Shown: piece after piece, positions 29,723-49,795 of the stretch
Layout of the letters: each line of letters begins with the position of its first letter
Numbering within the stretch: position 1 is the first letter of the stretch
Origin: a virus
Lineage: Duplodnaviria; Heunggongvirae; Uroviricota; Caudoviricetes
IMG/VR virus record: IMGVR_UViG_3300032092_002720
Coordinates: 64,001-128,000 of that record
Length of the DNA: 64,000 nucleotides
Strand: one strand, 5' to 3'
Notes under the pieces: generated by a model
The model's database searches: none
What the model was told of the DNA's origin: nothing
What the model saw: only the letters and a program-made list of their open reading frames with translations
Program-made: the position numbers and the translations under genes

Positions 29723-31438
29723 ATGTCAGGCGCAAATAATAGATTTAAGGTTGATAACGGTCTAGTTGCTTCTGGCAACGCGATCTTCTATGATCGTGTC
29801 GACGTAGAAGCCAACGCGCACTTTAAAAACGACTTGTTCGTTGTATCTGGTAACCTTGTTGTTAACGGATCTCTTGTTTATGCTAACGTTACCATCGGTC
29901 AAGGTGGTGTTCTTCTGATTGCAGATCAGCAGCCACTCGGTAATACTTCAAATCGTTTCAATGCATTCTTATATGATACTATCTCGTATAGTACACTTCG
30001 CCCGAATGCAAATGGTGGTGCTCTCGGTACTACCACGGCAAGATTCGACGTCTTTGCAAATAACATCACTGTTACGAACACTGTTAACTTCCCAAGTGGA
30101 GCAGGTGTTAACTCGACTCTTTATACTGGTACAGCAAGCAATGCTAACACAGTATACAATATCTCGGCAAATGGTATCGTAGTTCGAACTGGCACAGGAA
30201 CAGGAACAACTGTATCGATTGCTTCTACTGACGGGCTGAGTGTTCTTAATGGAAATGGTGTAGCTGGTAATCCAACGATTAGCTTCGTTGCAAATGCTGG
30301 ACTCTTTACGAATACTGCGGGTGTATGGGTTAACGCTTCAGCTATTACTGTAGGTACACTTCCTACAACTCGTGGTGGAACAGGCGGCAACATTAATAAC
30401 CTTCTACCTACGCAATCTGCTGGTGTAAAGGGTTACGTACTCTCATCAAACGGTGCTGATGGTGTTCTTTATTGGTCTGCACTTGCTGGACCTCAAGGCG
30501 CTCAAGGTGCAACTGGTGCTCAAGGCGCTCAAGGTGCAACTGGTTCGCAAGGACCTATCGGTGTGCAAGGTTCAGCATCTACTGTTCCTGGTCCACAAGG
30601 AGCTCAAGGTATAACTGGAGCTCAAGGCGCCCAAGGAACAACTGGTTCTCAAGGTCCACAAGGACCTTCAGTTCAAGGACCGACTGGACCACAAGGTGCT
30701 CAAGGTATTCAAGGACCACAAGGACCACAAGGAACAACTGGAGCTCAAGGCGCAGCATCGACAGTTCCTGGTCCACAAGGTGCTCAAGGTTTACAAGGAG
30801 CCCAAGGTCCGCAAGGGGCGCAAGGAATTACAGGTGCACAAGGTGCAGCATCAACAGTTCCTGGGCCTCAAGGAGCTCAAGGTTTACAAGGAGCTCAAGG
30901 TGCAACAGGTGCGCAGGGACCTGGAGGTTTGAATGGTGCACAAGGTGCTACTGGTGCTCAAGGACCAGCAGGTTCAAGTATAACGGGTCCTCAAGGACCA
31001 CAAGGTGCACAAGGAAGTGCATCTGGTGCCGTAGCTCCTATTCTCAGACACGTTACAGCTGGATTTACAAGTGGTGGTCAAGTCTTTGTAACCGGTTCTA
31101 CTCCTACTGCTTCTGCCGCTGGTGATATCTGGATCGATACAGCAGGAACTACGGGATATACACAAAGTCTCTCATCAAATGGATGGACTCGATTGCCGAA
31201 CGGCGTGATTCTCCAATGGGGAACAGTAACTGTTACTCCAAATACCACAGGATCTGGATCATTTCCAACATCGTTCACCGCGGTTGCCCGAGCTGTGATG
31301 AATGGCGTAGGAGATACAAGTGTATTTGGACAAGCTTCTAAAGCTGCAACAATCTTTAGTGTTAGCACAACTGGTTTTAGTTGGTTTAACGGAGATGAAA
31401 ATTCTCACACTGGTTACTGGTTAGCAATGGGATATTAA
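29723..31438 (+). CDS. Tail fibre protein with a collagen-like segment and a C-terminal receptor-binding-type domain
   Basis: Long G-X-Y run, and a C-terminal GW.RLPNGVILQWG domain typical of fibre tips. Followed by a chaperone gene. Confidence 0.8.
   Translation: MSGANNRFKVDNGLVASGNAIFYDRVDVEANAHFKNDLFVVSGNLVVNGSLVYANVTIGQGGVLLIADQQPLGNTSNRFNAFLYDTISYSTLRPNANGGALGTTTARFDVFANNITVTNTVNFPSGAGVNSTLYTGTASNANTVYNISANGIVVRTGTGTGTTVSIASTDGLSVLNGNGVAGNPTISFVANAGLFTNTAGVWVNASAITVGTLPTTRGGTGGNINNLLPTQSAGVKGYVLSSNGADGVLYWSALAGPQGAQGATGAQGAQGATGSQGPIGVQGSASTVPGPQGAQGITGAQGAQGTTGSQGPQGPSVQGPTGPQGAQGIQGPQGPQGTTGAQGAASTVPGPQGAQGLQGAQGPQGAQGITGAQGAASTVPGPQGAQGLQGAQGATGAQGPGGLNGAQGATGAQGPAGSSITGPQGPQGAQGSASGAVAPILRHVTAGFTSGGQVFVTGSTPTASAAGDIWIDTAGTTGYTQSLSSNGWTRLPNGVILQWGTVTVTPNTTGSGSFPTSFTAVARAVMNGVGDTSVFGQASKAATIFSVSTTGFSWFNGDENSHTGYWLAMGY
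30488..31015 (+). repeat. Collagen-like (G-X-Y)n coding repeat
   Basis: GPQ/GAQ/GAT triplets with ASTVP interruptions. Confidence 0.92.
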
Positions 31439-34278: not shown

Positions 34279-34324
34279 TCATGAGGATTATATAATCCTA
34301 TCATACTCTATATAGAGGTTGGGA

Positions 34325-36223
34325 ATGCCGAATAAATTTCAATTTAAGCGTACGACAGTCTCAGGTCGTACAGCTAATACTACGAACGCAGCAAACGCGG
34401 CCTTTATTGACAAGGGCGAGTTGGCTATTAACTTAGCCGATCGCAAAGTCTTTTCTTCAGACGCGTCGAATAATATCTTCGAAGTCGGATCCAACCTCTC
34501 AAGTCTCGCAGTTACAACTCTTGTTGCTAACGGTTCTTCGGGTTCCAATACACAAGTTCTAGCCTCGAATGGCACGGGTGTATATTGGACATCTGCTACT
34601 GCTACTCTCGGCTCTGTTAACTGGGCGCAAAACGCTGCTCCATCAGTATACATTAGCGCTGGCACTCCAACAGTCATTGCGCAGATTAGTCTTACCTCTT
34701 CAGGTAGCCCGATTCAAATCATTGCACACGGCGATGCCAATCCTCTCACTGCTGGCGGTTGGGGTAGATTACAGCTTTATCGAGGTTCAACGCCGATCGG
34801 TGCTCAGACTCACTTTGAGTCTTCTAACGGAAACGAAAACGTTCCGTATTCACTTCAATTCATTGATACTCCTCCTGCAGGAACCTACACGTATTCTATT
34901 AAATCTAACTCTGTTACTGGTAACACTCAGTACGGTGAAACTGATGGACCAGTAATTTCTGTCGTAGAACTTCAAAACGTTGTAGGTGCACAGGGTGCTC
35001 AAGGTGCACAGGGAGCAACTGGAGCCCAAGGTGCGCAAGGAATTACGGGCGCACAAGGCGCCACTGGGGCACAAGGTTCGCAAGGTGCAACTGGTGCTCA
35101 AGGTGCACAGGGAGCTCAAGGACTTCAAGGAGCACAAGGAGCAACTGGAGCTCAAGGACCACAAGGTGAGACTGGAGCTCAGGGCGTTCAAGGCGCACAG
35201 GGACCACAAGGTGCACAAGGTGCAACTGGTCTCGGATTCAAGATCGCAAAGTCATATGTTTCTGTAGCAGCACTCACAGCCGATACCTCACCGACTGGTA
35301 TCTTGGCTGGTGAATTTGCTATCGTTGAAACTGGTAATGTAAACGACGCAGAAAACTCAAGACTCTACCTTTGGAATGGATCTGCATATTCATACGTATC
35401 AGATCTTTCGGGTTCGACAGGATTTACAGGACCTCAAGGTGCGACTGGTCCACAAGGCGCAACAGGACCTCAAGGTGTGCAAGGACCACAAGGTCCAGGT
35501 GTTGATGCCAACTTAAGTGTTACATGGGCTAACACACAGATCTTCAATGCCAACGTTACATTCAATGCTGGTGTCATCGCTAACAGTTCGATTGGTGCCA
35601 ACGGAGAAGTACTGACGTCGAATGGAACTTCAGTTTACTGGGGTCCAGCTGCGGTCGCTTCGAACGTATACACAAGCATAGTAACGTATACATACTCGAT
35701 CTCGTCTAACACGACTGTTATTACAGGCGCAGATGCCAATACGCAAATTCTTTCATACACTGCTGGCCTCGAGAGCGTGTTCCTCAACGGTTCGAAGCAG
35801 ATCTCGACCACAGATTATACCACTCCGAACTCTGCGGCGATTACGTTTACTTCGAATGTCATTGCAGGTGACGTCGTTCAGATCGTCGCTCAGATTCCTG
35901 CGCTTAGCGTAATCGAAGGCGCATCGAACTCACAGACAACTTCGACAACTGCAAATACCATCGTAGACTCTTTCGCGAAAGCAGCATACAGATCAGCTAA
36001 GTATTACATACAGATTACATCTGGATCAGACTATCACATCACAGAAGCATTACTTCTTCATGATGGCTCTCAGGTCTATGTAACCGAGTATGGTACAGTA
36101 TATTCAAACACATCACTTGGTAATGTTAGTGCTAATATTAATTCCAGTAACGTAAATCTGCTGGTTGCTCCTACAAACTCTTCGAGCGTAGTAAAGACGA
36201 AGAGAATTACTCTTGACGTATAA
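34325..36223 (+). CDS. Fibre protein: Mtd_N-like start, collagen segments, C-terminal YRSAKY.IQ domain
   Basis: FQFKRT....GELAINLADRK.FS start, G-X-Y runs, DSF.KAAYRSAKYYIQI...TE.LLLHDG....TEYG. ATG at 34325 follows GAGGT. Confidence 0.75.
   Translation: MPNKFQFKRTTVSGRTANTTNAANAAFIDKGELAINLADRKVFSSDASNNIFEVGSNLSSLAVTTLVANGSSGSNTQVLASNGTGVYWTSATATLGSVNWAQNAAPSVYISAGTPTVIAQISLTSSGSPIQIIAHGDANPLTAGGWGRLQLYRGSTPIGAQTHFESSNGNENVPYSLQFIDTPPAGTYTYSIKSNSVTGNTQYGETDGPVISVVELQNVVGAQGAQGAQGATGAQGAQGITGAQGATGAQGSQGATGAQGAQGAQGLQGAQGATGAQGPQGETGAQGVQGAQGPQGAQGATGLGFKIAKSYVSVAALTADTSPTGILAGEFAIVETGNVNDAENSRLYLWNGSAYSYVSDLSGSTGFTGPQGATGPQGATGPQGVQGPQGPGVDANLSVTWANTQIFNANVTFNAGVIANSSIGANGEVLTSNGTSVYWGPAAVASNVYTSIVTYTYSISSNTTVITGADANTQILSYTAGLESVFLNGSKQISTTDYTTPNSAAITFTSNVIAGDVVQIVAQIPALSVIEGASNSQTTSTTANTIVDSFAKAAYRSAKYYIQITSGSDYHITEALLLHDGSQVYVTEYGTVYSNTSLGNVSANINSSNVNLLVAPTNSSSVVKTKRITLDV
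34985..35499 (+). repeat. Two collagen-like (G-X-Y)n segments
   Basis: GAQ/GAT/GPQ runs at about 34985-35230 and 35420-35499. Confidence 0.9.
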
Positions 36224-36226
36224 ATA
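36219..36226 (+). promoter_or_regulatory. T4-type late promoter
   Basis: Exact TATAAATA overlapping the upstream stop, 28 nt before the long-fibre ATG. Confidence 0.78.
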
Positions 36227-36254: not shown

Positions 36255-39200
36255 ATGACTACACCAGTTAATTTTCGCGTTAAGAACGGGTTAACCGTAG
36301 CGAACGGAATAGCAGTAACAGCCGGAAACGTTGTAATTTCGAGCGGTCAACTCGTGATCGGTGCTACTGCGATCAACTCAACTTCACTCAGCCAATCGGC
36401 TGACAATGCATACGCTAACGGCGTGAACTATGCAGACGGTAAAGCTGCTGATGCTTATACGAATGCTGTAGCTGTAGCTACTGGTTCCTCGACCAATGCA
36501 TATAATAACGCTGTTGCTTTTGCGGCCAATGCCGATAATCTCACAACTGGAACACTTTCTCTCAATCGCCTTCCTGCGACAGTGAACGTATCTCTCGCTC
36601 TGAATGTTACAAATACTGTTAACATTTCAACGAGTAACGTAACTGTTTCACAAGCGAATGATGTCGCGAAGATCACAGGAACCACAATTTCATTAACAGA
36701 CAGTTTAACAGAAACTGGTAATACTTATTATGCAGCAATCTCTCATGATAAACTGATTACAGAAAAAACTTATACTGTTGCCAACGTAATCTATGCAGAT
36801 TACGGCGAACTCTCGCGCACAGGAATGTTTGCAGGTGTAGGTATCGATACGTCTAACACTTCAATCTATGTTCGAGGTGTCACAGTCAATACCTCGGTGA
36901 TTGCGATCGGAAATACTTCAGTATTCAGTTCCATCAACTCGACGGCATTTTCTGGTAACGGCGCATCACTTACTTCTGTCAATGCTGCGACAGTTGGCGG
37001 TAACTCTGCTTCTGACCTTCGAACATATACAGAAACGTATGCATCAAATGCCACGAATCTGACTTCAGGTACAGTCAACTCTGCTCGCCTCCCATCAGCA
37101 AATGCTACCGTAGCAGGTGCAACTCTTCTTGTCGATTCAGTATCGAATACTTCGACGACAGCAGCCGCTTCAGCAGCTTCTGTTAAAACTGCATATGACG
37201 CAGCCATTACTGCAAACACGAATGCGACCAATCTTTCTGCGAATGCATATTCGAATGCTGTAACGTATACTGATAATAAAGCTGCAAATGCATACTCGAA
37301 TGCCATTGCTATCGCAGCGAATGCTACCAACCTCACATCTGGTACTGTCAACGCAGCAAGACTTCCATCTGGTAACTCGACAACTGCAGGCGCAGTGATT
37401 CTTGTCGATTCGATAGCGAACACTTCAACAACTGCAGCCGCTTCTGCTGCAGCTGTAAAAACCGCCTATGATGCTGCCATCGTTGCTAACACAAATGCAA
37501 ACACTGCGTTAACAGCCGCTGGATCTGCATACACGAACGCAGTGTCATATACAGACACCAAAATTGGAACTGCAAACACTGCTATCACTGGCAATGCGGC
37601 GACCGCATATTCGAATGCTGTATCATATACAGATACGAAGATTGCAACTGCTAATACTGCCATGGCCGCTAACGCAGATGCTGCTTATACGAATGCAATC
37701 GCGATCGCTTCCAATGCAACTAATCTGACATCTGGTACAGTTAACTCAGCTCGTCTTCCATCTGGCAACTCAACTGTTGCCGGTGCGGTAGTTCTTGTCG
37801 ACTCGGTCTCGAATACATCGACAACTGCAGCTGCATCTGCCGCTTCAGTCAAATCTGCTTATGACGCAGCGATTACGGCAAACACAAATGCTAACACTGC
37901 ATTGACTGCCGCTGGCTCGGCTTATACCAATGCCGTATCTTATACCGACACAAAGATCGGTACTGCAAATACTGCCATGGTTGCAAATGCCGCTGCAGCT
38001 TACACTAACGCAGTCTCTTACACAGACGGTAAAATCAGTACTGCCAATTCTGCTATTACAGGAAATGCGGCTACCGCTTATAGTAATGCTGTGTCTTATG
38101 TAGATACAAAGATTGGTACTGCCAATACAGCAATGGTAGCAAATGCTGGCGCTGCTTACACAAATGCTGTATCTTATACCGACACGAAGATCGGCACAGC
38201 TAATACAGCGATGGTAGCAAATGCTGGCGCTGCTTACACAAATGCTGTATCTTATACCGACACGAAGATCGGCACAGCTAATACCGCAATGGCTGCTAAC
38301 GCGGCAGCAGCTTATACGAATGCAGTCAGCTATACTGATACAAAAATTGGCACCGCGAACACTGCAATGGCTGCTAACGCAGCTGCAGCTTATACCAATG
38401 CGGTAAGTTACACTGATACGAAGATCGGCACTGCAAATACTGCGATGGTAGCCAATGCCGGAGCCGCTTATACCAATGCGACTATCTTTGCTGCGAATGC
38501 TTCGAATGCAAACAATGGTACTCTTGCTGAAGCTCGTCTTCCATACCGTATGAATCAGGATCTCAGAACTTCTGATTCTCCGACTTTTGCAAACGGCTCG
38601 TTTACTGGTTCTGTTACAGTAGGTGGAAACTTAACCGTAACTGGTAATCTGATTTCGACTAACATCGAATCTTTCTCTGTGTCGGATCCTCTGATCAAGC
38701 TAGGTGTGAATAACCCCGGTGATACTTATTGGGGTGGATTTACATTCCACTATAACGGATCTGGTAATACTACAAACCATGCTGGTCTTGTACGTAGTCC
38801 GACATCAAAAGAATTCCTTCTTATGTCGACGTTTGGTGATGAGACTGCTGTTGCTAATAACAACACGATCAACATTGCTGATGCATCGTTCTCATATGCC
38901 AATTTAACGGTTAATCTATTAAAGGCTGGCAACTCTACGGTATTCTCAAGTATTAATGCTACGTCGTTTACCGGTACAGCAAATAATGCCACGAATGCTT
39001 TCGGTAAGACAGAAGGCGCGATCAATGCTAACTCTGCTCTGACTGCAAACAACTCGACGAATCTTGGCGGTCAAGATGCAGCATACTATACTAATGCGAC
39101 TAATATTAGTACTGGAACTCTACCTTTCGCTAGACTCCCATCGTTGTATCTTGGCACGACTGCTATTCAATCGACGAGTGCTGCTCAAGCTGTAAGCGGT

Positions 39201-40283
39201 ATCACAACTCTTGCGGCTGGTAATACTACCATCTCAGGTTTTGCTAACGTTATAAGTGGATTATCACTTTCTAATGGTACATCAAACTTCATCACTTGGT
39301 CGACAGCCGGTGTTGACGGTCCTTCTATTAATACACGAAGCCCGGGTACTAAGCTATTACTATATCCAGCTCTGTCTGTGAGTCAAACTGATTATGCTAT
39401 GGGTATTAGCCCGGCAACAATGTGGTCTACTGTTCCTACTAACGAAGATAGCTTTAAATTTAAATGGTATGGAGCTGACATAGAAGTTGCTTCTCTGAGT
39501 GGTACTGGTAACTTTAAGATATCTGGATATGCTAACGTATCTGGAGCAATTCAAGGTGGATCATCGCTTACAATTGCAGGTGCCGCTTCTGGTATCACTA
39601 CGCTTGCCGCAGGTAATACTACGATTACCGGAAACCTTAGTGTTTCGAGCGTCGGTAGCTTCGATCGAGTAACTACTGCCAATAATGGCGGTGGAACAAA
39701 TATTGGTATCGGTGATGATGCATGGTTCGGCGATATTAATCAGGCCGATACTGTTCGCATCATGGGTCAACAGAGTGCCAACAACGGATACATTGTTTTC
39801 GGCAATGCTAACAATGACATCAAATTGGGACGTTCTGGAACTGGTGCTCTTACATGGAACGGAGCATTCAGTGTTACTGGCGGACTAACTACTCTGTCAG
39901 CAAACCTTGTGATGGCCAACAACAACATCACGAATCCAACGCTGACAGGTTATACCGAATCTGAAGTTTCAAATACAGCTGTCACAGGAACATATACTCT
40001 TAACTGTGTTGCTTCTAACTTCTGGGATCTTACGCTTACTGGAAATACAACGATCTCTCCAACAGGAGTTCCTCCGAGCACAAGAATGTGGGCTGGAACT
40101 ATCGTAGCAAAACAAGATGCTACCGGTGGTCGCACGATCACTTGGCCGACAGGAAGTAAATATCCTGGCGGTGTAGCTCCTCCTGCAACAACAACCGCAA
40201 ACGCCATCGACGTATGGTCACTCATGACTTATGACGGCGGTACTTCTTGGATTGTTTCTCTGACGGTGAAGGGCGCCGCATAA
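36255..40283 (+). CDS. Long tail-fibre-like protein with a repeat stalk
   Basis: FRVKNGL N-terminus, three fibre repeats (AGA..LVDS.SNTSTTAAASAA.VK.AYD), nine 26-aa repeats and a C-terminal QDATGGRTITWP...PGG.APP...ANAIDV domain. Confidence 0.8.
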   Translation: MTTPVNFRVKNGLTVANGIAVTAGNVVISSGQLVIGATAINSTSLSQSADNAYANGVNYADGKAADAYTNAVAVATGSSTNAYNNAVAFAANADNLTTGTLSLNRLPATVNVSLALNVTNTVNISTSNVTVSQANDVAKITGTTISLTDSLTETGNTYYAAISHDKLITEKTYTVANVIYADYGELSRTGMFAGVGIDTSNTSIYVRGVTVNTSVIAIGNTSVFSSINSTAFSGNGASLTSVNAATVGGNSASDLRTYTETYASNATNLTSGTVNSARLPSANATVAGATLLVDSVSNTSTTAAASAASVKTAYDAAITANTNATNLSANAYSNAVTYTDNKAANAYSNAIAIAANATNLTSGTVNAARLPSGNSTTAGAVILVDSIANTSTTAAASAAAVKTAYDAAIVANTNANTALTAAGSAYTNAVSYTDTKIGTANTAITGNAATAYSNAVSYTDTKIATANTAMAANADAAYTNAIAIASNATNLTSGTVNSARLPSGNSTVAGAVVLVDSVSNTSTTAAASAASVKSAYDAAITANTNANTALTAAGSAYTNAVSYTDTKIGTANTAMVANAAAAYTNAVSYTDGKISTANSAITGNAATAYSNAVSYVDTKIGTANTAMVANAGAAYTNAVSYTDTKIGTANTAMVANAGAAYTNAVSYTDTKIGTANTAMAANAAAAYTNAVSYTDTKIGTANTAMAANAAAAYTNAVSYTDTKIGTANTAMVANAGAAYTNATIFAANASNANNGTLAEARLPYRMNQDLRTSDSPTFANGSFTGSVTVGGNLTVTGNLISTNIESFSVSDPLIKLGVNNPGDTYWGGFTFHYNGSGNTTNHAGLVRSPTSKEFLLMSTFGDETAVANNNTINIADASFSYANLTVNLLKAGNSTVFSSINATSFTGTANNATNAFGKTEGAINANSALTANNSTNLGGQDAAYYTNATNISTGTLPFARLPSLYLGTTAIQSTSAAQAVSGITTLAAGNTTISGFANVISGLSLSNGTSNFITWSTAGVDGPSINTRSPGTKLLLYPALSVSQTDYAMGISPATMWSTVPTNEDSFKFKWYGADIEVASLSGTGNFKISGYANVSGAIQGGSSLTIAGAASGITTLAAGNTTITGNLSVSSVGSFDRVTTANNGGGTNIGIGDDAWFGDINQADTVRIMGQQSANNGYIVFGNANNDIKLGRSGTGALTWNGAFSVTGGLTTLSANLVMANNNITNPTLTGYTESEVSNTAVTGTYTLNCVASNFWDLTLTGNTTISPTGVPPSTRMWAGTIVAKQDATGGRTITWPTGSKYPGGVAPPATTTANAIDVWSLMTYDGGTSWIVSLTVKGAA
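37527..38466 (+). repeat. 26-aa (78-nt) coding repeat, 2 + 7 copies
   Basis: AYTNAVSYTDTKIGTANTAM.ANA.A. 38133-38206 and 38211-38284 are identical over 74 nt. Confidence 0.92.
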
Positions 40284-42331
40284 TGAGTATTGGTGGTGGT
40301 TCGAAGTTTACATTAGAGAAAACATGGCGTGGTGCCGGGACTGGAACAACTAAGTTCAACAGTCCTGGTAACATCACGATTCCTTATGGTAGAAATAGTG
40401 TTCTTGTTTCTGGTAGAGGTGGCACAGGCACAGCTTTGATCCCTGGTCCTGGAACCGGCACATTCAACATCATTCCTGGCAATGCGACTGGCACATTCAA
40501 CATCATTCCAGGAAATGCGACTGGAAACTTTAATATCGTTCCTGGCAATGCGACTGGCACTTTTAATATTGTTCCTGGAAATATAGCCAACTATAATATT
40601 ATCTTTCCTCAGACCGGCAATTTCAATATCATATTCCCGCAGACCGGAGGATTCAACATCGTTCCAGGAAATGCTACTGGCACTTTCAACATTGTTCCAG
40701 GAAATGCAACTGGCAACTTTAATATCATTCCTGGCAATGCAACTGGCAACTTTAACATCGTTCCTGGTAATGCTACTGGCACTTTCAACATTGTTCCAGG
40801 AAATGCCACGGGTACATTTAACATTATTCCTGGTAATATTGCCAGCTACAATATCATTTTCCCAGGAACTGGTACATTCAACAAAGTTCCAGGGAACATA
40901 GCTGGTTATAACATCATTTTCCCTGGAACAGGTACTTTCAATATCATCCCTGGTCCTGTGGCAAACTACAACATCATTTTCCCAGGCACAGGGTCATTCA
41001 ACAAAGTTCCTGGAAACATCTCTGGCTATAACATCGTTTTTCCGGGTACAGGAGCATTTAACATTGTTCCAGGTAATGGTACAGGAACTTTTAACAAAAT
41101 TCCAGGTAATATATCTAGTTACAATATCAATCCGGGTCCAGTGTCAGGCTATAACGTAAATCCAGGCAACGTTTCAGGCTATAACGTAAATCCAGGCAAC
41201 GTGTCAGGCTATAACGTAAATCCAGGCAACGTATCTGGAAGCAATGTTATTCCTGGAAATGCCACCGGCACATACAACTCTGTTCCCGGAAATCGAATTA
41301 ATCCGGCGGTTATTAATCCGAAATTTGGATATTTTGCAGGAAGCTTCAATGCACCGTCTGGTGGTCCTCAGAACTTTAACTCTCCATCAGCAGGTCCTTC
41401 TAACTTTAACTCGCCTACTAATGGTCCTGCAAACTTCAATGCAGCGAGCAATGGTCCTGCAAACTTCAATGCAGCAACCAATGGTCCTGCAAACTTCAAT
41501 GCGCCAACTAATGGCCCTGCAAACTTCAATGCACCGACAAATGGCCCACAAAACTTTAACCCAGCTACCAACGGTCCACAAAACTTCAACGTTGCCAATG
41601 GCCCTGCGAACTTCAATGCACCGACAAATGGCCCACAAAACTTCAACGTTGCGAATGGCCCTGCAAACTTCAATGCGCCAACCGGTGGACCTCAGAACTT
41701 TAACGTTGCCAATGGTCCTGCAAACTTTAATGCACCAACGAACGGTCCACAAAACTTCAACGTAGCCAATGGTCCTGCAAACTTTAACCCTGCCACTAAC
41801 GGGCCTCAGAATTTCAATCCTGCCACTAGCGGTCCGCAGAATTTCAATCCAGCTACTAATGGTCCACAAAACTTTAATCCAGCTGTCGGTGGCCCTCAGA
41901 ATTTCAATCCAGCGACTAATGGACCTCAGAACTTTAACCCAGCTACAAACGGTCCTCAGAACTTTAACGTAGCGAATGGTCCTCAGAACTTTAACGTAGC
42001 GAATGGACCTGCTAACTTTAATCCTGCAACCAATGGTCCTCAGAACTTTAACCCTGCAACTAATGGTCCACAAAACTTTAATCCGGCAACGAATGGACCT
42101 CAGAACTTTAACCCTGCTACCAGCGGACCTCAGAACTTTAATACTCCAACTCCAGCCGTTCCAGGAAATCCGTCAAATACACTTGGTATTACTTTCCCTG
42201 GTTCAAATGCTGGAGGAACGGCTGCACCTGTGATAAATAACCAGATAGCGAGCTACTATGCTTATCCTGATGGCCAATCGCATTCGGTAACTGTGGCTCC
42301 TGGAGGATATATAGATATTACTATTGAATAA
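40283..42331 (+). CDS. Asn/Gly/Pro-rich mirror-repeat protein, 682 aa, probably virion-associated
   Basis: TAATG overlap with the fibre gene gives a start at 40283 (MSIGGG). Non-repetitive ends flank two repeat arms. Confidence 0.85.
   Translation: MSIGGGSKFTLEKTWRGAGTGTTKFNSPGNITIPYGRNSVLVSGRGGTGTALIPGPGTGTFNIIPGNATGTFNIIPGNATGNFNIVPGNATGTFNIVPGNIANYNIIFPQTGNFNIIFPQTGGFNIVPGNATGTFNIVPGNATGNFNIIPGNATGNFNIVPGNATGTFNIVPGNATGTFNIIPGNIASYNIIFPGTGTFNKVPGNIAGYNIIFPGTGTFNIIPGPVANYNIIFPGTGSFNKVPGNISGYNIVFPGTGAFNIVPGNGTGTFNKIPGNISSYNINPGPVSGYNVNPGNVSGYNVNPGNVSGYNVNPGNVSGSNVIPGNATGTYNSVPGNRINPAVINPKFGYFAGSFNAPSGGPQNFNSPSAGPSNFNSPTNGPANFNAASNGPANFNAATNGPANFNAPTNGPANFNAPTNGPQNFNPATNGPQNFNVANGPANFNAPTNGPQNFNVANGPANFNAPTGGPQNFNVANGPANFNAPTNGPQNFNVANGPANFNPATNGPQNFNPATSGPQNFNPATNGPQNFNPAVGGPQNFNPATNGPQNFNPATNGPQNFNVANGPQNFNVANGPANFNPATNGPQNFNPATNGPQNFNPATNGPQNFNPATSGPQNFNTPTPAVPGNPSNTLGITFPGSNAGGTAAPVINNQIASYYAYPDGQSHSVTVAPGGYIDITIE
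40463..41302 (+). repeat. Repeat arm 1: 27 units of (F/Y)N-xx-PGN-... (10-11 aa)
   Basis: Ten 11-mers plus seventeen 10-mers give 280 aa, which matches the 840-nt span. Confidence 0.92.
41345..42136 (+). repeat. Repeat arm 2: 27 units of FN-xxx-NGP-(Q/A)N (9-10 aa)
   Basis: Twenty-one 10-mers plus six 9-mers give 264 aa, which matches the 792-nt span. Confidence 0.92.
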
Positions 42332-42353: not shown

Positions 42354-42947
42354 ATGCCATATATTATTCCTAAATATGGGAAGCAATTAAATTGTTTCGC
42401 GGTGTGGACAGGAGGATTTACTCCTGAAGAAGTCGATATGATCATCGACTTAGAAAAGCTCCAAGAATTTGAAAAGGGTAAAGTTGGGCTCGAGCAAAAT
42501 GCTGCGGCTCCTGCACATACGCGTGATTCTGATATCTCATGGATCCATCATGATCATCACAGCGATTGGCTCTTTAATAGAATGTCTGGAATTGTATCGA
42601 CTGTCAACTACGATCACTTTATGTATGACATCGAAGGAGTCGAGGCTTTTCAATATACAAAATACGGACCAAATCAACACTACACTTGGCACTGGGATGT
42701 TGAGTTCGGCTGGCAGAAATATATAAGAAAGATATCGGCATCTCTTCTTCTCTCAGATCCTGATGAGTATGAAGGCGGAGAGCTAGAGATTGTAAACAAT
42801 GGAAACTTTGAAGATAAAGTCTCGTTTAAACCGAATAAAGGTGATATCGTATTCTTCGCTTCATGGATGCCACATCGAGTGAAGCCAATCACATCAGGAA
42901 CGCGTAAGAGTCTTGTAGCATGGGTAATGGGTGAAAGAGAATGTTGA
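42354..42947 (+). CDS. 2OG-Fe(II) oxygenase, prolyl-4-hydroxylase-like
   Basis: Q.T.Y.....Y.WHWD (HxD), RKISASLLLSDP.EYEGGEL, F.S...HRV.P.TSGTRKSLV.W. Confidence 0.92.
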   Translation: MPYIIPKYGKQLNCFAVWTGGFTPEEVDMIIDLEKLQEFEKGKVGLEQNAAAPAHTRDSDISWIHHDHHSDWLFNRMSGIVSTVNYDHFMYDIEGVEAFQYTKYGPNQHYTWHWDVEFGWQKYIRKISASLLLSDPDEYEGGELEIVNNGNFEDKVSFKPNKGDIVFFASWMPHRVKPITSGTRKSLVAWVMGEREC

Positions 42948-43678
42948 GTTGGAATCCTTTTAAGAAGAAACCTATCATTGAGTTTTATTGTCATCGAGAT
43001 GACGTAGCCAGTTTGCCGCATCCAAAGCCTGCAGCTAAACATATACCTGAATGGTATAAAAGAATTCCTCCGCTCATTACAGACGGCCGAGACGATCGTG
43101 ATTGGTCAGGATCACATAGTTTTACTGCAAAAAAATGCATGCCAATGATAGACGCCATGTCGTTGGGTTATGTCATTCCTCTTATCGCCGACATGACAGT
43201 CAGATCAAATCATGACTGTAGTACGATCGAAGTGACATCTTCTCCTCACATCACTGTATGTGAGTTTCATGACATTCGGCAACTCGGAGAAAGATCTGCT
43301 CCAGGATTTCCTGCTCCACCTTTAAAGTTCGTTAATCCATGGATCGTAAAGACTGCTCCAGGTTGGTCTACACTTTTTATAGCGCCGATTAACAACTTTG
43401 AAAGTCATTTTACTTGCTTATCTGGATTGGTCGATACTGATACATATCCAAAGGAAGTCAATTTCCCTGCAATCTGGCATACTCCAAATGCTGACGTGCT
43501 TCTGCCTGCTGGAACTCCATTGGTCATCGCTATCCCAATTAAGCGCGATGCAGTCCCATCAAAGCCTACGATAAGAGATATGAAAGAACCAGAACAACAC
43601 TTGATCAATCTCATATCGAAGATGCAAAACACGCGCAGAAGTGTATATACAAAAGAACTGAGAGCACCCAGAAAATGA
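42941..43678 (+). CDS. Conserved hypothetical protein (possibly DUF6065-like), paralog 1
   Basis: IPEWYK, KKCMP..DA..LGY.IP, KF.NPW..KT.PGWS.LF and G.VDTD.Y...VNFP. The family name is recalled, not verified. Confidence 0.55.
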   Translation: MLSWNPFKKKPIIEFYCHRDDVASLPHPKPAAKHIPEWYKRIPPLITDGRDDRDWSGSHSFTAKKCMPMIDAMSLGYVIPLIADMTVRSNHDCSTIEVTSSPHITVCEFHDIRQLGERSAPGFPAPPLKFVNPWIVKTAPGWSTLFIAPINNFESHFTCLSGLVDTDTYPKEVNFPAIWHTPNADVLLPAGTPLVIAIPIKRDAVPSKPTIRDMKEPEQHLINLISKMQNTRRSVYTKELRAPRK

Positions 43679-44415
43679 AAGATCTGTTTTCTTTTTTAAA
43701 ACCGAAAAAAGATATCGAATTCGTAGATACGAAGAAATTATCTTATCATAACTTTTCTGTCGAACGAGCTGTTGATGTTCCAACAAACACTCGTAAAGTC
43801 CAACAAGACAAGTATGGTAAACATCTGATGCCATACTGTCCCGGAATTTTAGATTATGCCCAATTCGGGTATATCATTCCAGCTTGGGTAGACATTCATA
43901 TTATGGCAAACAAAGCTGGCACTTCATGGTATCTTGGAGATAAAGGTGCTAGAGGAGATCGTGGTTTTGACAACGGCGTGAAGATGGATGAAAAGTTTGT
44001 AGAAGGTGCATTTACTCCTATTGGAATTAATCCTACTGCAATCTTGTTTCCATCGCCTTGGAAAATCTTTACACAAAAAAACATCAGCGCATTGTTAATG
44101 CCAGCATTCTACCACTCTACCTTTCTCGATGATCTATACGTGACGCCAGGTTTGGTAGATTATAAAAACTTTCATATCACAAACTTCATCTGTATGCCGA
44201 AGAGAGAATGTAACGTTCATATCAAAGCAGGCGAACCTTTACTACATGTCATTCCTTTCCTTAATAAAGATATTAGTGCTTCAGTTGGTCCTGCTACAGA
44301 TGAGATGATAGATAAAACTGCAAATCTAATTCCTGGAGATGATAAGCAATACTATCGGAAGTTTATGGGAATTAAAAAGAAATTTAATATGCAAAAAGAA
44401 GAGATTAAACAATGA
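43675..44415 (+). CDS. Conserved hypothetical protein, paralog 2
   Basis: CPGILDYAQFGYIIP, FPSPWKIFT, PG.VDY..F...NF and AGEPLLHVIP align by eye with paralog 1. Confidence 0.55.
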   Translation: MKDLFSFLKPKKDIEFVDTKKLSYHNFSVERAVDVPTNTRKVQQDKYGKHLMPYCPGILDYAQFGYIIPAWVDIHIMANKAGTSWYLGDKGARGDRGFDNGVKMDEKFVEGAFTPIGINPTAILFPSPWKIFTQKNISALLMPAFYHSTFLDDLYVTPGLVDYKNFHITNFICMPKRECNVHIKAGEPLLHVIPFLNKDISASVGPATDEMIDKTANLIPGDDKQYYRKFMGIKKKFNMQKEEIKQ

Positions 44416-45431
44416 ACATTTTTGTTTCAGTATGCTCGTACCAAGATCCTTTACTTCCTCATACTATCAAGAGTATGATGCAGACCAAATCAAATAGAAA
44501 CAACGTAGTCTATTCGATCTTCGAGCAGACGCGGTTCGAGGATTCTTTGGCTTGCACAGAGCCTGTGCTTGTAAATAGAGATGATGTCATCTATAAAAGA
44601 ATTGATCCAGAATATTCTGATGGCTGTGTTTGGGCAAGATACCTTAACTTGTTAAACGTAACAAATGAGTACGACTTTATCTATCAAGTCGACTCTCACA
44701 TGCTACATGACATGAACTGGGATCGCTCTCTTGTTGAAGATTATAAGAGAGCAATGGATATGGCTGGAACGAACAAAGTAATCATTACTGGTTCGTGTAA
44801 ATCATTTACGATTGAAGAAAAAGATGGGGAAATTAAAACGTATCCTCAGCATGAAGTCAACGATGCATGTCAAGTAAAGTACTACACTATCGATCCTCAT
44901 AATTTTATTCCAGACGTTCACGGCGATAATATTCCTTCGACTGATATGCCGAGACCTGCATTCCATATTATGGCTGGCAACTTCTTCACACACACCGATT
45001 GGCTCGATGAAGTTGGTTTAGATCCAAAGATATTCTTCCGCGGAGAAGAAATAATGATGACGATGATGTCATATGCGGCTGGATATAAGATGTTCCATCA
45101 TAGTAAGATGGTATCATATCATCTTGAGAACACTCGAAACTGGCATACGAAGACTCCACCAGAAAATGTAAAAGCTGCCCGAAGAAGAGAAATCTTGGCT
45201 GAAATTGGTATATGGAGATGGAAGCAGTATCTCGAAACTTGCAGAGAAGATCTCCTTTCCGAGTTCCATAAAGAATTCGGTGTAGACTTTATTAACTTAG
45301 AAATTGAAGAGCGCGCAAAGACTTATAGTCTCGATGCTATCGGTGGAGTTGATATCCTCGCTATTTCGAAGAAACCAAAGAAGAAAGTAAAGCTGCCTAA
45401 AACTCTTTTCATGAGTGAAGACGAAGAATGA
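44412..45431 (+). CDS. GlcNAc transferase resembling Skp1-hydroxyproline Gnt1 (GT60-like)
   Basis: IFVS..SY.DP.L..TI, G..WAR, Q.DSHM....WD..L, AG.FF....L.EV..DP..FF.GEE and GY..FH. Confidence 0.8.
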   Translation: MNIFVSVCSYQDPLLPHTIKSMMQTKSNRNNVVYSIFEQTRFEDSLACTEPVLVNRDDVIYKRIDPEYSDGCVWARYLNLLNVTNEYDFIYQVDSHMLHDMNWDRSLVEDYKRAMDMAGTNKVIITGSCKSFTIEEKDGEIKTYPQHEVNDACQVKYYTIDPHNFIPDVHGDNIPSTDMPRPAFHIMAGNFFTHTDWLDEVGLDPKIFFRGEEIMMTMMSYAAGYKMFHHSKMVSYHLENTRNWHTKTPPENVKAARRREILAEIGIWRWKQYLETCREDLLSEFHKEFGVDFINLEIEERAKTYSLDAIGGVDILAISKKPKKKVKLPKTLFMSEDEE

Positions 45432-45961
45432 TCGTATGTTCTCTCCCACGCTGCGGAGCTACAAAGTTTTGTTTAGACTTTCAAGAAAAAACAAAACTTA
45501 AGTTTGTGGGAGAGTTACATCCTGTTCATATTCAAAGTGATAGAAAAGCTTTGACGCACGAAACAGAGTATCAAACTAACTTTACTTCGGATTCTTTCGC
45601 AGAACTTTTACATGATCATAGCGAACACATTGCACTTGTAAATCAGCACTCATATCTTTTGGCTAATCAAGCAAGTGTTTTCATGCTCCGTAAAAATATG
45701 AGAGATGCATCTCTTAGCTTGGCAAACTATATGTTGAAGGCATATCCAGGAATTAAAGTAGCCGCACTGAAGTTTAATCTAGCTCTGATGCACCATGATC
45801 ATAAGGCTCTGACAGCATATTTAAATAAATATGAGAAAGAAGTGGTATGGTATGAAGACTACTACGGCATCTCTGGAACAAAAACCCCCTTGCTCGATTC
45901 GTATATCGGAAGAGATTCTATCATAAAAGAGATTGACGACTATTATGGATCAACAGTTTGA
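45428..45961 (+). CDS. Sulfotransferase-like protein (Stf0-like PAPS-binding loop)
   Basis: N-terminal SLPRCGAT.F, LRKN..DA.LS and WYEDY resemble the 5'-PSB loop and downstream motifs. The protein is short and divergent. Confidence 0.55.
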   Translation: MIVCSLPRCGATKFCLDFQEKTKLKFVGELHPVHIQSDRKALTHETEYQTNFTSDSFAELLHDHSEHIALVNQHSYLLANQASVFMLRKNMRDASLSLANYMLKAYPGIKVAALKFNLALMHHDHKALTAYLNKYEKEVVWYEDYYGISGTKTPLLDSYIGRDSIIKEIDDYYGSTV

Positions 45962-46658
45962 TAAAAGATACGTTCTTACTACTATCCAACTGATAGGTCC
46001 ATTTATCGTATTATGGGCACTCTTGCAATATGCTACACTCGCATGGGTAGCCGTTGCTATGATCATGCTTTTTCTGATGAGAATCGTAGGCGGTTCGATA
46101 TTCTATCATCGCATTCTTTGTCATCACACTCATGATGTGCATCCAACAGTAGAGTTTATCGGCACCGCACTCGGATTCTATGGATCCTTTATGCCACCTG
46201 CAGACTTTTGCATAACACACTTCAATCATCATAAGTATGCTGACACTGAGCAAGATCCTCATTGCCACAGCACGCAAGGCTGGAGAACGATGTTCCCTAT
46301 TTTATGGAATATTACCAATCGGGTAGATTTTCGAACCGTAATTCGTCTTCGAAAAAATAAGACAGTCAATCTATTTTCTGAGAAGTATTGGCTGGTGGCA
46401 TCTTTGCCACTTCTATTGCTACTCATATCGCCTGAAGCATTCTTGTTTTTGTTTCTTATTCCGTGTACTCTATCGATATGGTCGGCGGCAATATCTACAA
46501 TGAATCACGATGAGAATGGAGCAAAGAACATGGGATTCTGGTATGGAATCGTAAGTGGCGCCGAGCACAAGCATAAGAATCATCACGATGATATATCAGA
46601 TGAAGGTTGGATAAATACCGTAGCAAATATAATAGCCAAAAAGAGAGTTAAAACATGA
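45945..46658 (+). CDS. Membrane fatty-acid desaturase-like di-iron enzyme
   Basis: Hydrophobic helices and three His boxes: HRILCH, HFNHH..AD...DPH and HKNHH. Confidence 0.85.
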   Translation: MDQQFDKRYVLTTIQLIGPFIVLWALLQYATLAWVAVAMIMLFLMRIVGGSIFYHRILCHHTHDVHPTVEFIGTALGFYGSFMPPADFCITHFNHHKYADTEQDPHCHSTQGWRTMFPILWNITNRVDFRTVIRLRKNKTVNLFSEKYWLVASLPLLLLLISPEAFLFLFLIPCTLSIWSAAISTMNHDENGAKNMGFWYGIVSGAEHKHKNHHDDISDEGWINTVANIIAKKRVKT

Positions 46659-47203
46659 ATCTTGTTACAATCACTATAAATGATTTATCAGAAGTTGATT
46701 TTGATGATCTGTATGAAAGATCCAAAGATGCAATCGACGCAAATTGGCCATCTACATCTATAATGACAGATGAAGAAAAAAAGGCCGGATATGTGGCTGC
46801 TATAACTAGTGGATTAAACAACGAATGGCCAGGTTTAAATCCACACGGACCAAACGACAGATATGTTGTCGCCAAACAAGTAGACCTTGATACAGGAACC
46901 GAACTAGGATTAGTCGCAGGATTTGTTCTTCCAGACGGGATTTTTGATGGTAGACATTCTATGAGTTCTCGCGATGCAAGCGGTTCTCGAAACTGGGTGT
47001 TTTCTGAACAATTTAGACAAGCTCGAAGCGATTGGTATGCAAGTATTGGAGCAACTAAAACTTTATATAGAAATATTGTTGCCGATTCTATGCATTATCG
47101 CCACATTAAAATGCGAGCAGGATTACATTTTGAAATCATAGAAGATATAGAATCTCCAACTTATGGCCCGCGTTTTAGAAATGTCACAGTAGAATATAAG
47201 TAA
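46655..47203 (+). CDS. Hypothetical protein
   Basis: 182 aa, translationally coupled on both sides. No family recognised. Confidence 0.7.
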   Translation: MNLVTITINDLSEVDFDDLYERSKDAIDANWPSTSIMTDEEKKAGYVAAITSGLNNEWPGLNPHGPNDRYVVAKQVDLDTGTELGLVAGFVLPDGIFDGRHSMSSRDASGSRNWVFSEQFRQARSDWYASIGATKTLYRNIVADSMHYRHIKMRAGLHFEIIEDIESPTYGPRFRNVTVEYK

Positions 47204-47907
47204 TGAAATTTTTATTGAATGTAGGAGCCGAGAAAGCTGGCACTACTTGGTTATATGATTATTTTCGAAACCATCCAGAATTCTATGATATGGGGAAAGA
47301 ACTCAATATCATTCAGAGAGATGATTTGGTGCCTATCTTAGAAGACGTAGACGAATATAGAAAAGACATAGAGTCTTTCTTTCGAGCAGTTTCAAATATA
47401 AATCAGGTGACAGGTGACTTCACACACTACGAAGGCTCAAGCGAGAACGTCTTTCGACTTATAAAGAATGGCTTGCTAAAGTACGATATCGAAGTAGTGC
47501 CAGTCTATATTATGCGAGATCCTATTCAAAGGGCTTGGTCTTCTTGGAATTCTCTCGGAGGAGGAAAGATTGCAATTAAATCCCCGGCTTCACAATTTGT
47601 GATGACTAATTTTATGTCATGCAAATATAGAGAAACGATAGAAGCTTTAGACGGTGTTTTCCCAAATCCGTTATATTTCTTCTATGAGGATTTTTTTACT
47701 CAAGACAATATCAATAAGATATGCGATGAGTTACAGATTTCTCATCATCCTGCAGAATGTGACACCAGAATCAACGCTTCTCCGTATAAGAAAATACCAA
47801 ACATCTTCTTGAAAACTTTTGGTAAATCTCCGAAGAATAAAACAACTGCTAAATATATTTTTGAAAGATTTGAAAATGTACCATGGAAACTCGAAGATTA
47901 TCCGTAG
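47203..47907 (+). CDS. Sulfotransferase family protein
   Basis: VGAEKAGTTWLY.YF..HPE (5'-PSB loop) and MRDPI.RAWS (3'-PB). Confidence 0.88.
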   Translation: MKFLLNVGAEKAGTTWLYDYFRNHPEFYDMGKELNIIQRDDLVPILEDVDEYRKDIESFFRAVSNINQVTGDFTHYEGSSENVFRLIKNGLLKYDIEVVPVYIMRDPIQRAWSSWNSLGGGKIAIKSPASQFVMTNFMSCKYRETIEALDGVFPNPLYFFYEDFFTQDNINKICDELQISHHPAECDTRINASPYKKIPNIFLKTFGKSPKNKTTAKYIFERFENVPWKLEDYP

Positions 47908-48469
47908 ATCTACTCTCGATGAAGATCTTCGCTTAAAATTGCTTGAGGGTTTAAAAAATCCAGTACACATGCACTACTTTGATCGTAACGAAGCTACGAA
48001 CGCAACAGACGAAGCTGTGCTTGAGTTTCTCGACAGAGAACAATTTGGATGTAATAAAACTCACATCGAATATTGGTTTCAGTCTAAAGAATTTTCAGAG
48101 CATTTGTGGCCGCACGTAGATTTTAATGAGAAACTTCGAGATAGAATTAATGCTGGGGAACAATTAGAGCCAGAAGAACTGATGTCTCCAATTACCATCG
48201 CCTGTTATTTAGAGGCAACCGACCTTGAAGGCGGAGAATTCTGCATCTCTGAAAGAAGTTGGTTAGACTATGAAAAAGAACTCAACGATCCAGTAGATTT
48301 AAAAGAAGATTTGCTCAAATATACGTACGAATCTTTTCAACCCTTCGAAGGCGCAGTGTTATACTTTGAAGGCAGCAGATACTACCATTGGATCAACGAA
48401 GTCAAACGAGGATCTCGTAAGAGTATATTAATCAATTTCTGGGACGACTGTAGCCTTAAGTCCACTTAG
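47876..48469 (+). CDS. 2OG-Fe(II) oxygenase
   Basis: LWPHVD, YL...DLEGGEF, F.G..YYHWI..V..GSRKSI..NFW. Start placed at ATG 47876. Confidence 0.85.
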   Translation: MYHGNSKIIRRSTLDEDLRLKLLEGLKNPVHMHYFDRNEATNATDEAVLEFLDREQFGCNKTHIEYWFQSKEFSEHLWPHVDFNEKLRDRINAGEQLEPEELMSPITIACYLEATDLEGGEFCISERSWLDYEKELNDPVDLKEDLLKYTYESFQPFEGAVLYFEGSRYYHWINEVKRGSRKSILINFWDDCSLKST

Positions 48470-49787: not shown

Positions 49788-49795
49788 TATTTATA
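49788..49795 (-). promoter_or_regulatory. T4-type late promoter driving the minus-strand enzyme pair
   Basis: TATTTATA on the plus strand equals TATAAATA on the minus strand, 31 nt before the ATG at 49756. Confidence 0.75.

Follow-up and report, generated by a model that had tools for sequence, protein, structure and literature searches.

Glycosylation linked to hydroxyproline has been characterised in plants, in algae and in protists (Dictyostelium, Toxoplasma), where it belongs to the cytoplasmic Skp1 pathway: PhyA acts before the glycosyltransferase (GT) Gnt1, a member of CAZy family GT60. To our knowledge, all enzymatically characterised GT60 enzymes are eukaryotic. Here, we describe a four-gene phage cassette that encodes members of the same two enzyme families, located at positions 42354-45431 of a 64,000-nt stretch of DNA (hereafter, the window). 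It consists of genes for a prolyl 4-hydroxylase (P4H)-family dioxygenase dependent on 2-oxoglutarate (2OG) and Fe(II), two DUF6065 proteins, and a Gnt1-like GT60 transferase, and it follows a gene for a repeat-shaft protein. The window makes up the second half of IMG/VR virus record IMGVR_UViG_3300032092_002720 (128.8 kb, about 75% complete), which represents an uncultured freshwater T4-like phage, and the window carries T4-type baseplate, fibre, neck and packaging genes. The conserved phage-specific protein-modification cassette is real. As to its action, we tentatively favour a late-expressed phage module that hydroxylates and then O-glycosylates the repeat fibre protein, a reading that may well be right but is held with reserve.

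The initial annotation had described the locus as a Skp1-type two-step pathway. Both enzyme families are indeed present and linked across phages, the proposed order of the steps is the same, and the phage transferase, which has the DxH motif, is structurally closest to Gnt1 of the Skp1 pathway. However, the phage oxygenase is PKHD-like and not PhyA/EGLN-like, two obligatory DUF6065 proteins are added, the genes are operonic and viral, and the candidate substrate, a virion protein, is repetitive and offers dozens of possible sites. No match to Skp1 (PF01466) was found in the 128.8 kb, a weak negative, as the control had no match anywhere either and the record is about 75% complete; and no further GT family, as would be expected of extension glycosyltransferases, was found among ten cassette-region proteins scanned. 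The phage module is an analogue of the Skp1 pathway, not a member of it.

Other described systems resemble the cassette in part. The Ser/Thr N-acetylglucosamine (GlcNAc) and N-acetylgalactosamine (GalNAc) transferases, namely GT60 enzymes of T. cruzi and the Dictyostelium Golgi and animal GT27 enzymes, have the GT-A fold and the DxH metal motif in common with the phage transferase and likewise use protein hydroxyl acceptors, in repetitive mucin-like sequences; the phage GT differs from them in its low identity (12-17%), its lack of a lectin domain, and its constant pairing with a P4H-family gene. Viral and bacterial collagen-type P4Hs (PBCV-1, 5c5t; Bacillus anthracis, 3itq) belong to the family of the phage oxygenase, whose gene lies beside one for a Pro-rich repetitive structural protein, but they act on Gly-X-Y or (PAPK)n repeats, unlike the repeats of the phage. 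In mimivirus L230, where a GT of a different family is fused to a lysyl hydroxylase, the logic is likewise to hydroxylate a virion fibre and then to glycosylate it. Mycobacteriophage GTs, also of other families, decorate the C-termini of the phages' own capsid and tail-tube proteins with no hydroxylase step; the cassette would likewise direct a phage-encoded GT to the phage's own virion, with a repeat fibre as the target. No account of this phage module emerged from our literature searches.

The transferase belongs to GT60 and the oxygenase to the P4H superfamily

A search with hidden Markov models (HMMs) bore out the identification of a Gnt1-like transferase in the initial annotation. The protein matched PF11397 ('GlcNAc', CAZy GT60) with an E value of 4.3e-26 and 92.7 bits (cut-off 21), in two stretches corresponding to profile positions 2-48 and 93-305 of 352. 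The same profile was present in 113/113 GT homologues, nearly all of them unnamed and one labelled as a Nitrosarchaeum metagenome-assembled genome (MAG). Residues D12, D94-S95-H96 (the DxH motif), H185, E212-E213 and H237 were invariant among 30 sequences with identities down to 35%. The best Swiss-Prot structural match of the AlphaFold model (predicted local distance difference test, pLDDT, 86) was Dictyostelium Gnt1 (E 4e-19, template modelling score 0.67, 20% identity), followed by the polypeptide GalNAc-transferases of GT27, which also filled the PDB list. As judged from the predicted model, the transferase belongs among the protein O-glycosyltransferases of GT60/GT27 type, with a GT-A fold and a DxH-type metal motif.

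The GT subfamily is essentially phage-only. An alignment scan of species-representative bacterial and archaeal genomes gave a single match, on a 4.4-kb MAG contig that is probably phage DNA. A megablast search of cultured phages with the 3-kb stretch yielded nothing, and tblastn of the GT found only four distant jumbo Xanthomonas/Stenotrophomonas phages; the GT gene of Xoo-sp13 has a different context, adjoining a carbamoyl transferase gene with no annotated oxygenase nearby.

The annotated P4H-like oxygenase was likewise found, with an intact HxD...H...R series. It matched PF13640 (2OG-FeII_Oxy_3) with an E value of 1.2e-18 and 68.3 bits (cut-off 27), and phrog_61 (2OG-Fe(II) oxygenase, of the 'moron/AMG' category in PHROG) with an E value of 1e-37. 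H113-x-D115, H174 and R184 were invariant in 8 orthologues of 37-85% identity. As H113, D115 and H174 form the iron triad and R184 is the 2OG-binding Arg, the protein belongs to the P4H superfamily as delimited by PF13640 and SMART P4Hc. Its family profile matched 13 PDB structures at E<=0.01, all of them PKHD-type hydroxylases or prolyl 4-hydroxylases. The best were the PKHD-type Sbal_3634 and PiuC (E about 1e-12), and the remainder were Pseudomonas PPHD (the EF-Tu prolyl hydroxylase 4iw3) and the P4Hs of PBCV-1, Bacillus anthracis and Chlamydomonas. No PhyA or EGLN/PHD2 entry was among these matches, although distant relatives can escape a sequence search. With this profile, the PKHD type (E. 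coli YbiX, Pseudomonas PiuC, Shewanella Sbal_3634; 3dkq, 9qn0) provided the nearest solved sequences, with an E value of 8e-13 as compared with 5e-9 for the P4Hs; the match was limited to the C-terminal catalytic half of the protein, residues about 100-192. The nearest NCBIfam models were those of the YbiX-type 'Fe2+-dependent dioxygenase', with scores far below the equivalog cut-offs.

The four genes recur together in related phages

We compared the locus with a close set of 41 viral loci, in which the GT was 71-97% identical, and with a distant set of 39 loci (GT 38-46%) obtained by a profile-based scan; individual loci are cited by L numbers. In the close loci, the block of repeat-protein, oxygenase, DUF6065a, DUF6065b and GT60 genes was intact wherever the contig reached, and the genes downstream of it varied or were missing. 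All four gene types were present in 39/39 distant loci, in the order of the window in 33 of them. This recurrence in both sets shows that the pairing of the oxygenase with GT60 is far beyond chance. Look-ups of five GT homologues with 39-45% identity each led to contigs of T4-like phages on which the four genes were arranged as in the window, and near-identical DNA was found in freshwater metagenomes of many studies.

A homologue of the repeat protein was detected in 37/39 distant loci with HMMs of its N- and C-terminal domains, and in 35/39 by blastp; several of these homologous genes are interrupted by the contig end. The gene usually ends just 5' of the oxygenase gene. When compared with three relatives, the four enzyme and DUF6065 genes had ratios of nonsynonymous to synonymous substitution rates (dN/dS) of 0.03-0.08 (oxygenase 0.045-0.065, GT60 0.05-0.06), demonstrating strong purifying selection on all of them. 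These results support the view that the four genes function together and that their unit is tied to the repeat-shaft protein.

A possible two-step modification of the repeat-shaft protein

Given both family assignments, hydroxylation followed by O-glycosylation of the repeat protein is the most economical reading. In this scheme, the P4H-family dioxygenase, probably working with the two dUTPase-fold DUF6065 proteins, would hydroxylate the repeat-shaft protein encoded just upstream. The residue would most likely be proline, in the X-Pro-Gly and Gly-Pro sites of this phage and in the FN[AS]P of all homologues. The GT60 would then add an N-acetylhexosamine (HexNAc) to the new hydroxyl. Membership of the family points to a protein hydroxyl as the acceptor and to uridine diphosphate-GlcNAc (UDP-GlcNAc) as the donor, so that the sugar would probably be GlcNAc, and analogy with Gnt1 and GT27 suggests an alpha linkage. 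The product would be a fibre shaft carrying glycans. The comparisons establish the enzyme families, the intact catalytic residues, the strict co-occurrence and gene order in about 80 loci, the purifying selection, and the location among late structural genes; which protein and residue are modified, with which sugar and in which order, and what the DUF6065 proteins contribute, we infer.

The repeat protein itself has the composition given in the initial annotation: about 27 FNIIPGNATGT-type units are followed by about 28 FNPATNGPQN-type units, and conserved domains flank them at both ends, the N-terminal one with the pattern FN[AS]P...PYG...GRGG. It is the best candidate substrate, because a homologue lies directly upstream in most of the 39 distant loci, including the split sub-modules described below. 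Every repeat unit of the window includes Pro, and 96% include PG or GP; X-Pro-Gly is the classic collagen-P4H site. The gene is likelier to start at ATG 40283 than at TTG 40247, as the sequence MSIGGGSKF... encoded from the former aligns with the N-termini of homologues, and the latter overlaps the end of the fibre gene. Among homologues, the repeats in the middle are hypervariable, in length as well as in sequence, with an aromatic-Asn core throughout (for example, YNTVPGNPAS, NYNVAYPIANQPEAARP, YNSPEPGPPVIDG and YNAQNVAS), and the prolines present in all aligned sequences are those of the end domains only, in the N-terminal FN[AS]P and in the C-terminal YP.../...P.GG.

Two tandem repeat-shaft paralogues precede one enzyme cassette in several loci (L048:3706-7863, L119-L121, L127, L130-L133). 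In others, one or two extra genes lie between the repeat gene and the oxygenase gene (L046:7305-7970, L109:3449-4923, L122:3404-4845); the extra gene of L046 encodes a PKTGST motif, which we take to resemble the 3'-phosphoadenosine 5'-phosphosulfate (PAPS) loop of sulfotransferases.

The DUF6065 proteins have a predicted dUTPase-like fold

DUF6065a matched PF19541 with 47.4 bits (cut-off 26.6). Copy b, about 20% identical to it, was assigned to the family through phrog_7084 (E 1e-19) and the alignment of the two copies. The family, which comprises 2087 clusters at 50% identity, also has members of 450-500 aa that are tandem fusions of the a-b type. When the predicted model of DUF6065a (pLDDT 93) was compared with known structures, VIA gave Z scores of 8.1-10.1 to ten dUTPases; the first 22 matches were all of the dUTPase superfamily, after which the score dropped to 4.9. 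Foldseek agreed weakly on the same superfamily (E about 1e-3). DUF6065 is therefore assigned, on its predicted model, a dUTPase/dCTP-deaminase fold. No sequence-level match between dUTPases and DUF6065 was obtained, and of the five dUTPase motifs, copy a shows only G-x-V-D-T-D-x-Y (residues 162-169), presumably a counterpart of motif 3, of which copy b retains V-D. A complex prediction for DUF6065a with the oxygenase scored 0.00, which gives no verdict and counts neither way.

A second oxygenase/DUF6065 pair, lacking GT60 and lying on the opposite strand, was found in L025:6430-9394 (and also in L024 and L042). Its neighbours are two 2OG-FeII_Oxy_5 genes and a gene for a collagen-repeat protein, an independent link between this oxygenase type and Pro-rich structural proteins. 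DUF6065 is also common among tailed viruses of haloarchaea and is present in a few cyanophages (halophage HF1 and 59 other phage records).

Points against the two-step scheme and alternative explanations

Several observations weigh against hydroxylation of proline followed by its glycosylation. By sequence, the oxygenase is nearest to the PKHD type (PiuC/YbiX-like) and not to PhyA, and our literature searches found no description of the substrate of PKHD-type hydroxylases, so that no function can be transferred from them. The DUF6065 genes a and b are as conserved as those of both enzymes, and the Skp1 model does not explain their role. Moreover, a Pfam-detectable oxygenase gene was beside DUF6065 in none of five contexts sampled outside the fibre cassette (an archaeal-looking contig, a bacterial-looking contig, a phage, halovirus HF1, and a Bacteroidota genome).

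The arrangement of the cassette in six loci (L116-L118, L124-L126) speaks in the same direction. There, it is split into two sub-modules, one with a P4H-like and the GT60 gene, which overlap, and the other with P4H, DUF6065a and DUF6065b genes. A repeat gene separates the two, and in 5/6 of these loci another precedes the first sub-module. In 6/6, the P4H-like copy adjacent to GT60 lacks the distal iron-ligand His, which is replaced by Ala in three and by Ser in three, giving WMPARV or WMPSRI instead of WMPHRV (as in L118:6426-7001 compared with L118:10324-10929), and it also lacks the ARDSD block. Judging from these substitutions, the neighbour of GT60 in split loci is probably an inactive P4H-fold protein, and perhaps a substrate-binding adaptor serving the transferase. 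The distal His is retained in every DUF6065-linked copy and in the window copy, which is 54% identical to the DUF6065-linked type and 43% to the GT60-linked type; in genetic terms, the catalytic hydroxylase thus goes with the DUF6065 pair. As an active hydroxylase is still present in the split loci, a two-step route could operate in them too, but the coupling is more complex than that of one enzyme feeding the next.

The repeat units themselves are also ambiguous. The initial annotation had proposed the PGN/NGP prolines of the repeat protein as the sites of modification; the choice of the protein agrees with the presence of its homologue upstream in most loci, but these prolines are lineage-specific. 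Across relatives, Pro occurs in 28-100% of the units and in only 28-47% in L122, L113 and L109, units of the YNAQNVAS type have none, and Ser/Thr occurs in 58-100% of units, being commoner than Pro in some relatives. The GT60 enzymes of T. cruzi and the Dictyostelium Golgi glycosylate Ser/Thr, so membership of GT60 cannot show dependence on hydroxyproline. All this would suit a mucin-type mechanism, in which GT60 puts HexNAc directly on Ser/Thr of the repeat units and the oxygenase hydroxylates the same protein independently, for example, to stabilise the shaft as in collagen, without glycosylation depending on it. The same holds for the position of the Ser/Thr-directed GT27 enzymes as the nearest structural relatives after Gnt1 and for the loss of an iron ligand in the neighbour of GT60 in split loci. 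We nevertheless regard this mechanism as rather unlikely: in 39/39 distant loci GT60 never occurs without an intact P4H, the single best structural match is the hydroxyproline-specific Gnt1, and some units of the window, such as FNVANGPAN, contain no Ser/Thr at all.

The enzymes might also have other targets. The late region that holds the cassette also encodes two collagen-repeat proteins, 6-12 kb upstream of it, in L025 a collagen-repeat gene is next to a P4H/DUF6065 pair, and the GPQ triplet recurs in the second repeat arm (NGPQN), as if the collagen-like fibres were the true substrates, like those of the collagen P4Hs of chlorovirus, Bacillus and mimivirus, and the repeat protein merely belonged to the same fibre module. 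This is improbable, since no collagen Pfam match was recorded beside the cassette in L046, L048, L050 and L051, where the repeat homologue was always found, and since Pro occupies the X position of the triplets and not Y, the position at which animal C-P4H hydroxylates. A target in the host, either a protein (EF-Tu or ribosomal proteins, as for bacterial PPHD and eukaryotic OGFOD1-type enzymes) or an envelope component, would be in line with the frequency of 2OG oxygenases as auxiliary genes of aquatic T4-like phages and with the bacterial EF-Tu prolyl hydroxylase 4iw3 being among the nearer solved relatives; but the cassette sits within late structural genes, behind a repeat gene even when split, and its GT subfamily is essentially confined to phages, with one match, on the 4.4-kb MAG contig, among the species-representative genomes scanned, so that we give a host takeover little credence. 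Modification of DNA bases by an oxygenase together with a glycosyltransferase is known, and the dUTPase/dCTP-deaminase fold of DUF6065 raises the question of whether nucleotides or DNA are hypermodified in the manner of base J or of glycosylated hydroxymethylcytosine, with the dUTPase-fold proteins handling the nucleotide. In HF1 (L057, 48119-49003), DUF6065 adjoins ribonucleotide reductase, which hints at a nucleotide-related role of the family elsewhere. For the cassette, such a function is very improbable: the oxygenase is of the P4H family and not of Tet/JBP, for which PF12851 gave no match in the available part of the phage genome, the relatives of the transferase are protein O-glycosyltransferases, and the late fibre context with its strict link to the repeat gene suits a protein target better.

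We therefore retain, tentatively, the hydroxylation and subsequent O-glycosylation of the repeat protein. An extended version of it, in which the active P4H would need the DUF6065 proteins as a heteromeric pair of accessory subunits, a P4H-fold protein, in some lineages a catalytically dead substrate-binding adaptor, would guide GT60, and dozens of sites on a fold-back repeat shaft would give a tunable glycan coat on a receptor-binding fibre, is speculative and, as a whole, doubtful.

Genomic setting and expression

The features of the locus are listed in Table 1. From 42354 to 45961, each gene overlaps the next by 4-7 nt; two genes separate those of the oxygenase and GT60. Further structural genes of the window encode gp6-like and gp8-like proteins, a collagen-repeat fibre protein with a Gp53-like C-terminus, and a T4 neck protein. 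A C-terminal stretch, about 100-190 residues long, of the fibre-like protein encoded before the repeat protein matches the gene product at the same place in 28/39 distant loci; the equivalents in L046 and L051 carry PF26209, and a Pfam scan of the window protein at E<=0.001 gave zero matches.

Table 1. Features of the window around the modification cassette (aa, amino acids; ORF, open reading frame).
Feature	Position	Strand	Basis or remark
Collagen triple-helix repeat fibre protein	29723-31438		mostly GAQ/GPQ triplets; Gp53-like tail-fibre C-terminal domain
Collagen triple-helix repeat fibre protein	34319-36223		mostly GAQ/GPQ triplets
T4-type late-promoter motif TATAAATA	36219-36226	+	just 5' of fibre gene
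Fibre-like protein, 1342 aa, precedes repeat protein	36255-40283	+	homologous gene in distant loci
Repeat-shaft protein, candidate substrate, 694-aa ORF from TTG 40247	40283-42331	+	repeats and conserved ends
P4H-family 2OG/Fe(II) dioxygenase, 197 aa	42354-42947	+	PF13640, phrog_61
DUF6065 protein a, 245 aa, predicted dUTPase/dCTP-deaminase fold	42941-43678	+	PF19541, phrog_7084
DUF6065-like paralogue b, 246 aa	43675-44415	+	phrog_7084, alignment with copy a
GT60 (Gnt1-like) GT-A glycosyltransferase, 339 aa	44412-45431	+	PF11397
Lineage-specific accessory genes, five	45428-48469	+	common to most close relatives
Accessory: fatty-acid-desaturase-like di-iron protein	45933-46658	+	
Accessory: sulfotransferase-like protein	47203-47907	+	weak
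Accessory: second 2OG oxygenase	47819-48469	+	weak

The accessory set, which also includes 177-aa and 182-aa proteins of no assigned family, may add further modifications. Its genes were excluded as core members of the module, as they were found in 0/39 distant loci. The 177-aa protein encoded after GT60 was also compared with the 178-aa one encoded at the same place in L048, and the two are not homologous. In one distant lineage, a gene about 2 kb 3' of the cassette (L044:4844-6730, L045:7018-8904) encodes a 628-aa protein whose Glyco_transf_25 and GT_PLOD domains suggest a collagen-type glycosyltransferase-like enzyme.

The T4-type late-promoter motif occurs at 9 sites in the window, as compared with 3.2 expected. 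Between 36226 and 49788 there is none, and the next sites are at 49788 (-) and 49801 (+). As the motif at 36219 does not recur until 49788, the fibre, repeat-protein and enzyme genes fit one late unit, and by analogy with T4, on whose biology this reading rests, they plausibly form a single late transcription unit. A scan for sigma-70 promoters and terminators gave nothing above chance.

Implications

If the proposed scheme is true, hydroxyproline-type glycosylation chemistry would extend to bacterial viruses, and enzymatic decoration would be a new layer in the diversification or protection of phage receptor-binding fibres. The cassette would also offer an operon-sized system in which to study acceptor recognition by GT60 and the DUF6065 family. 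It bears, moreover, on the origin of the protist PhyA/Gnt1 pair.

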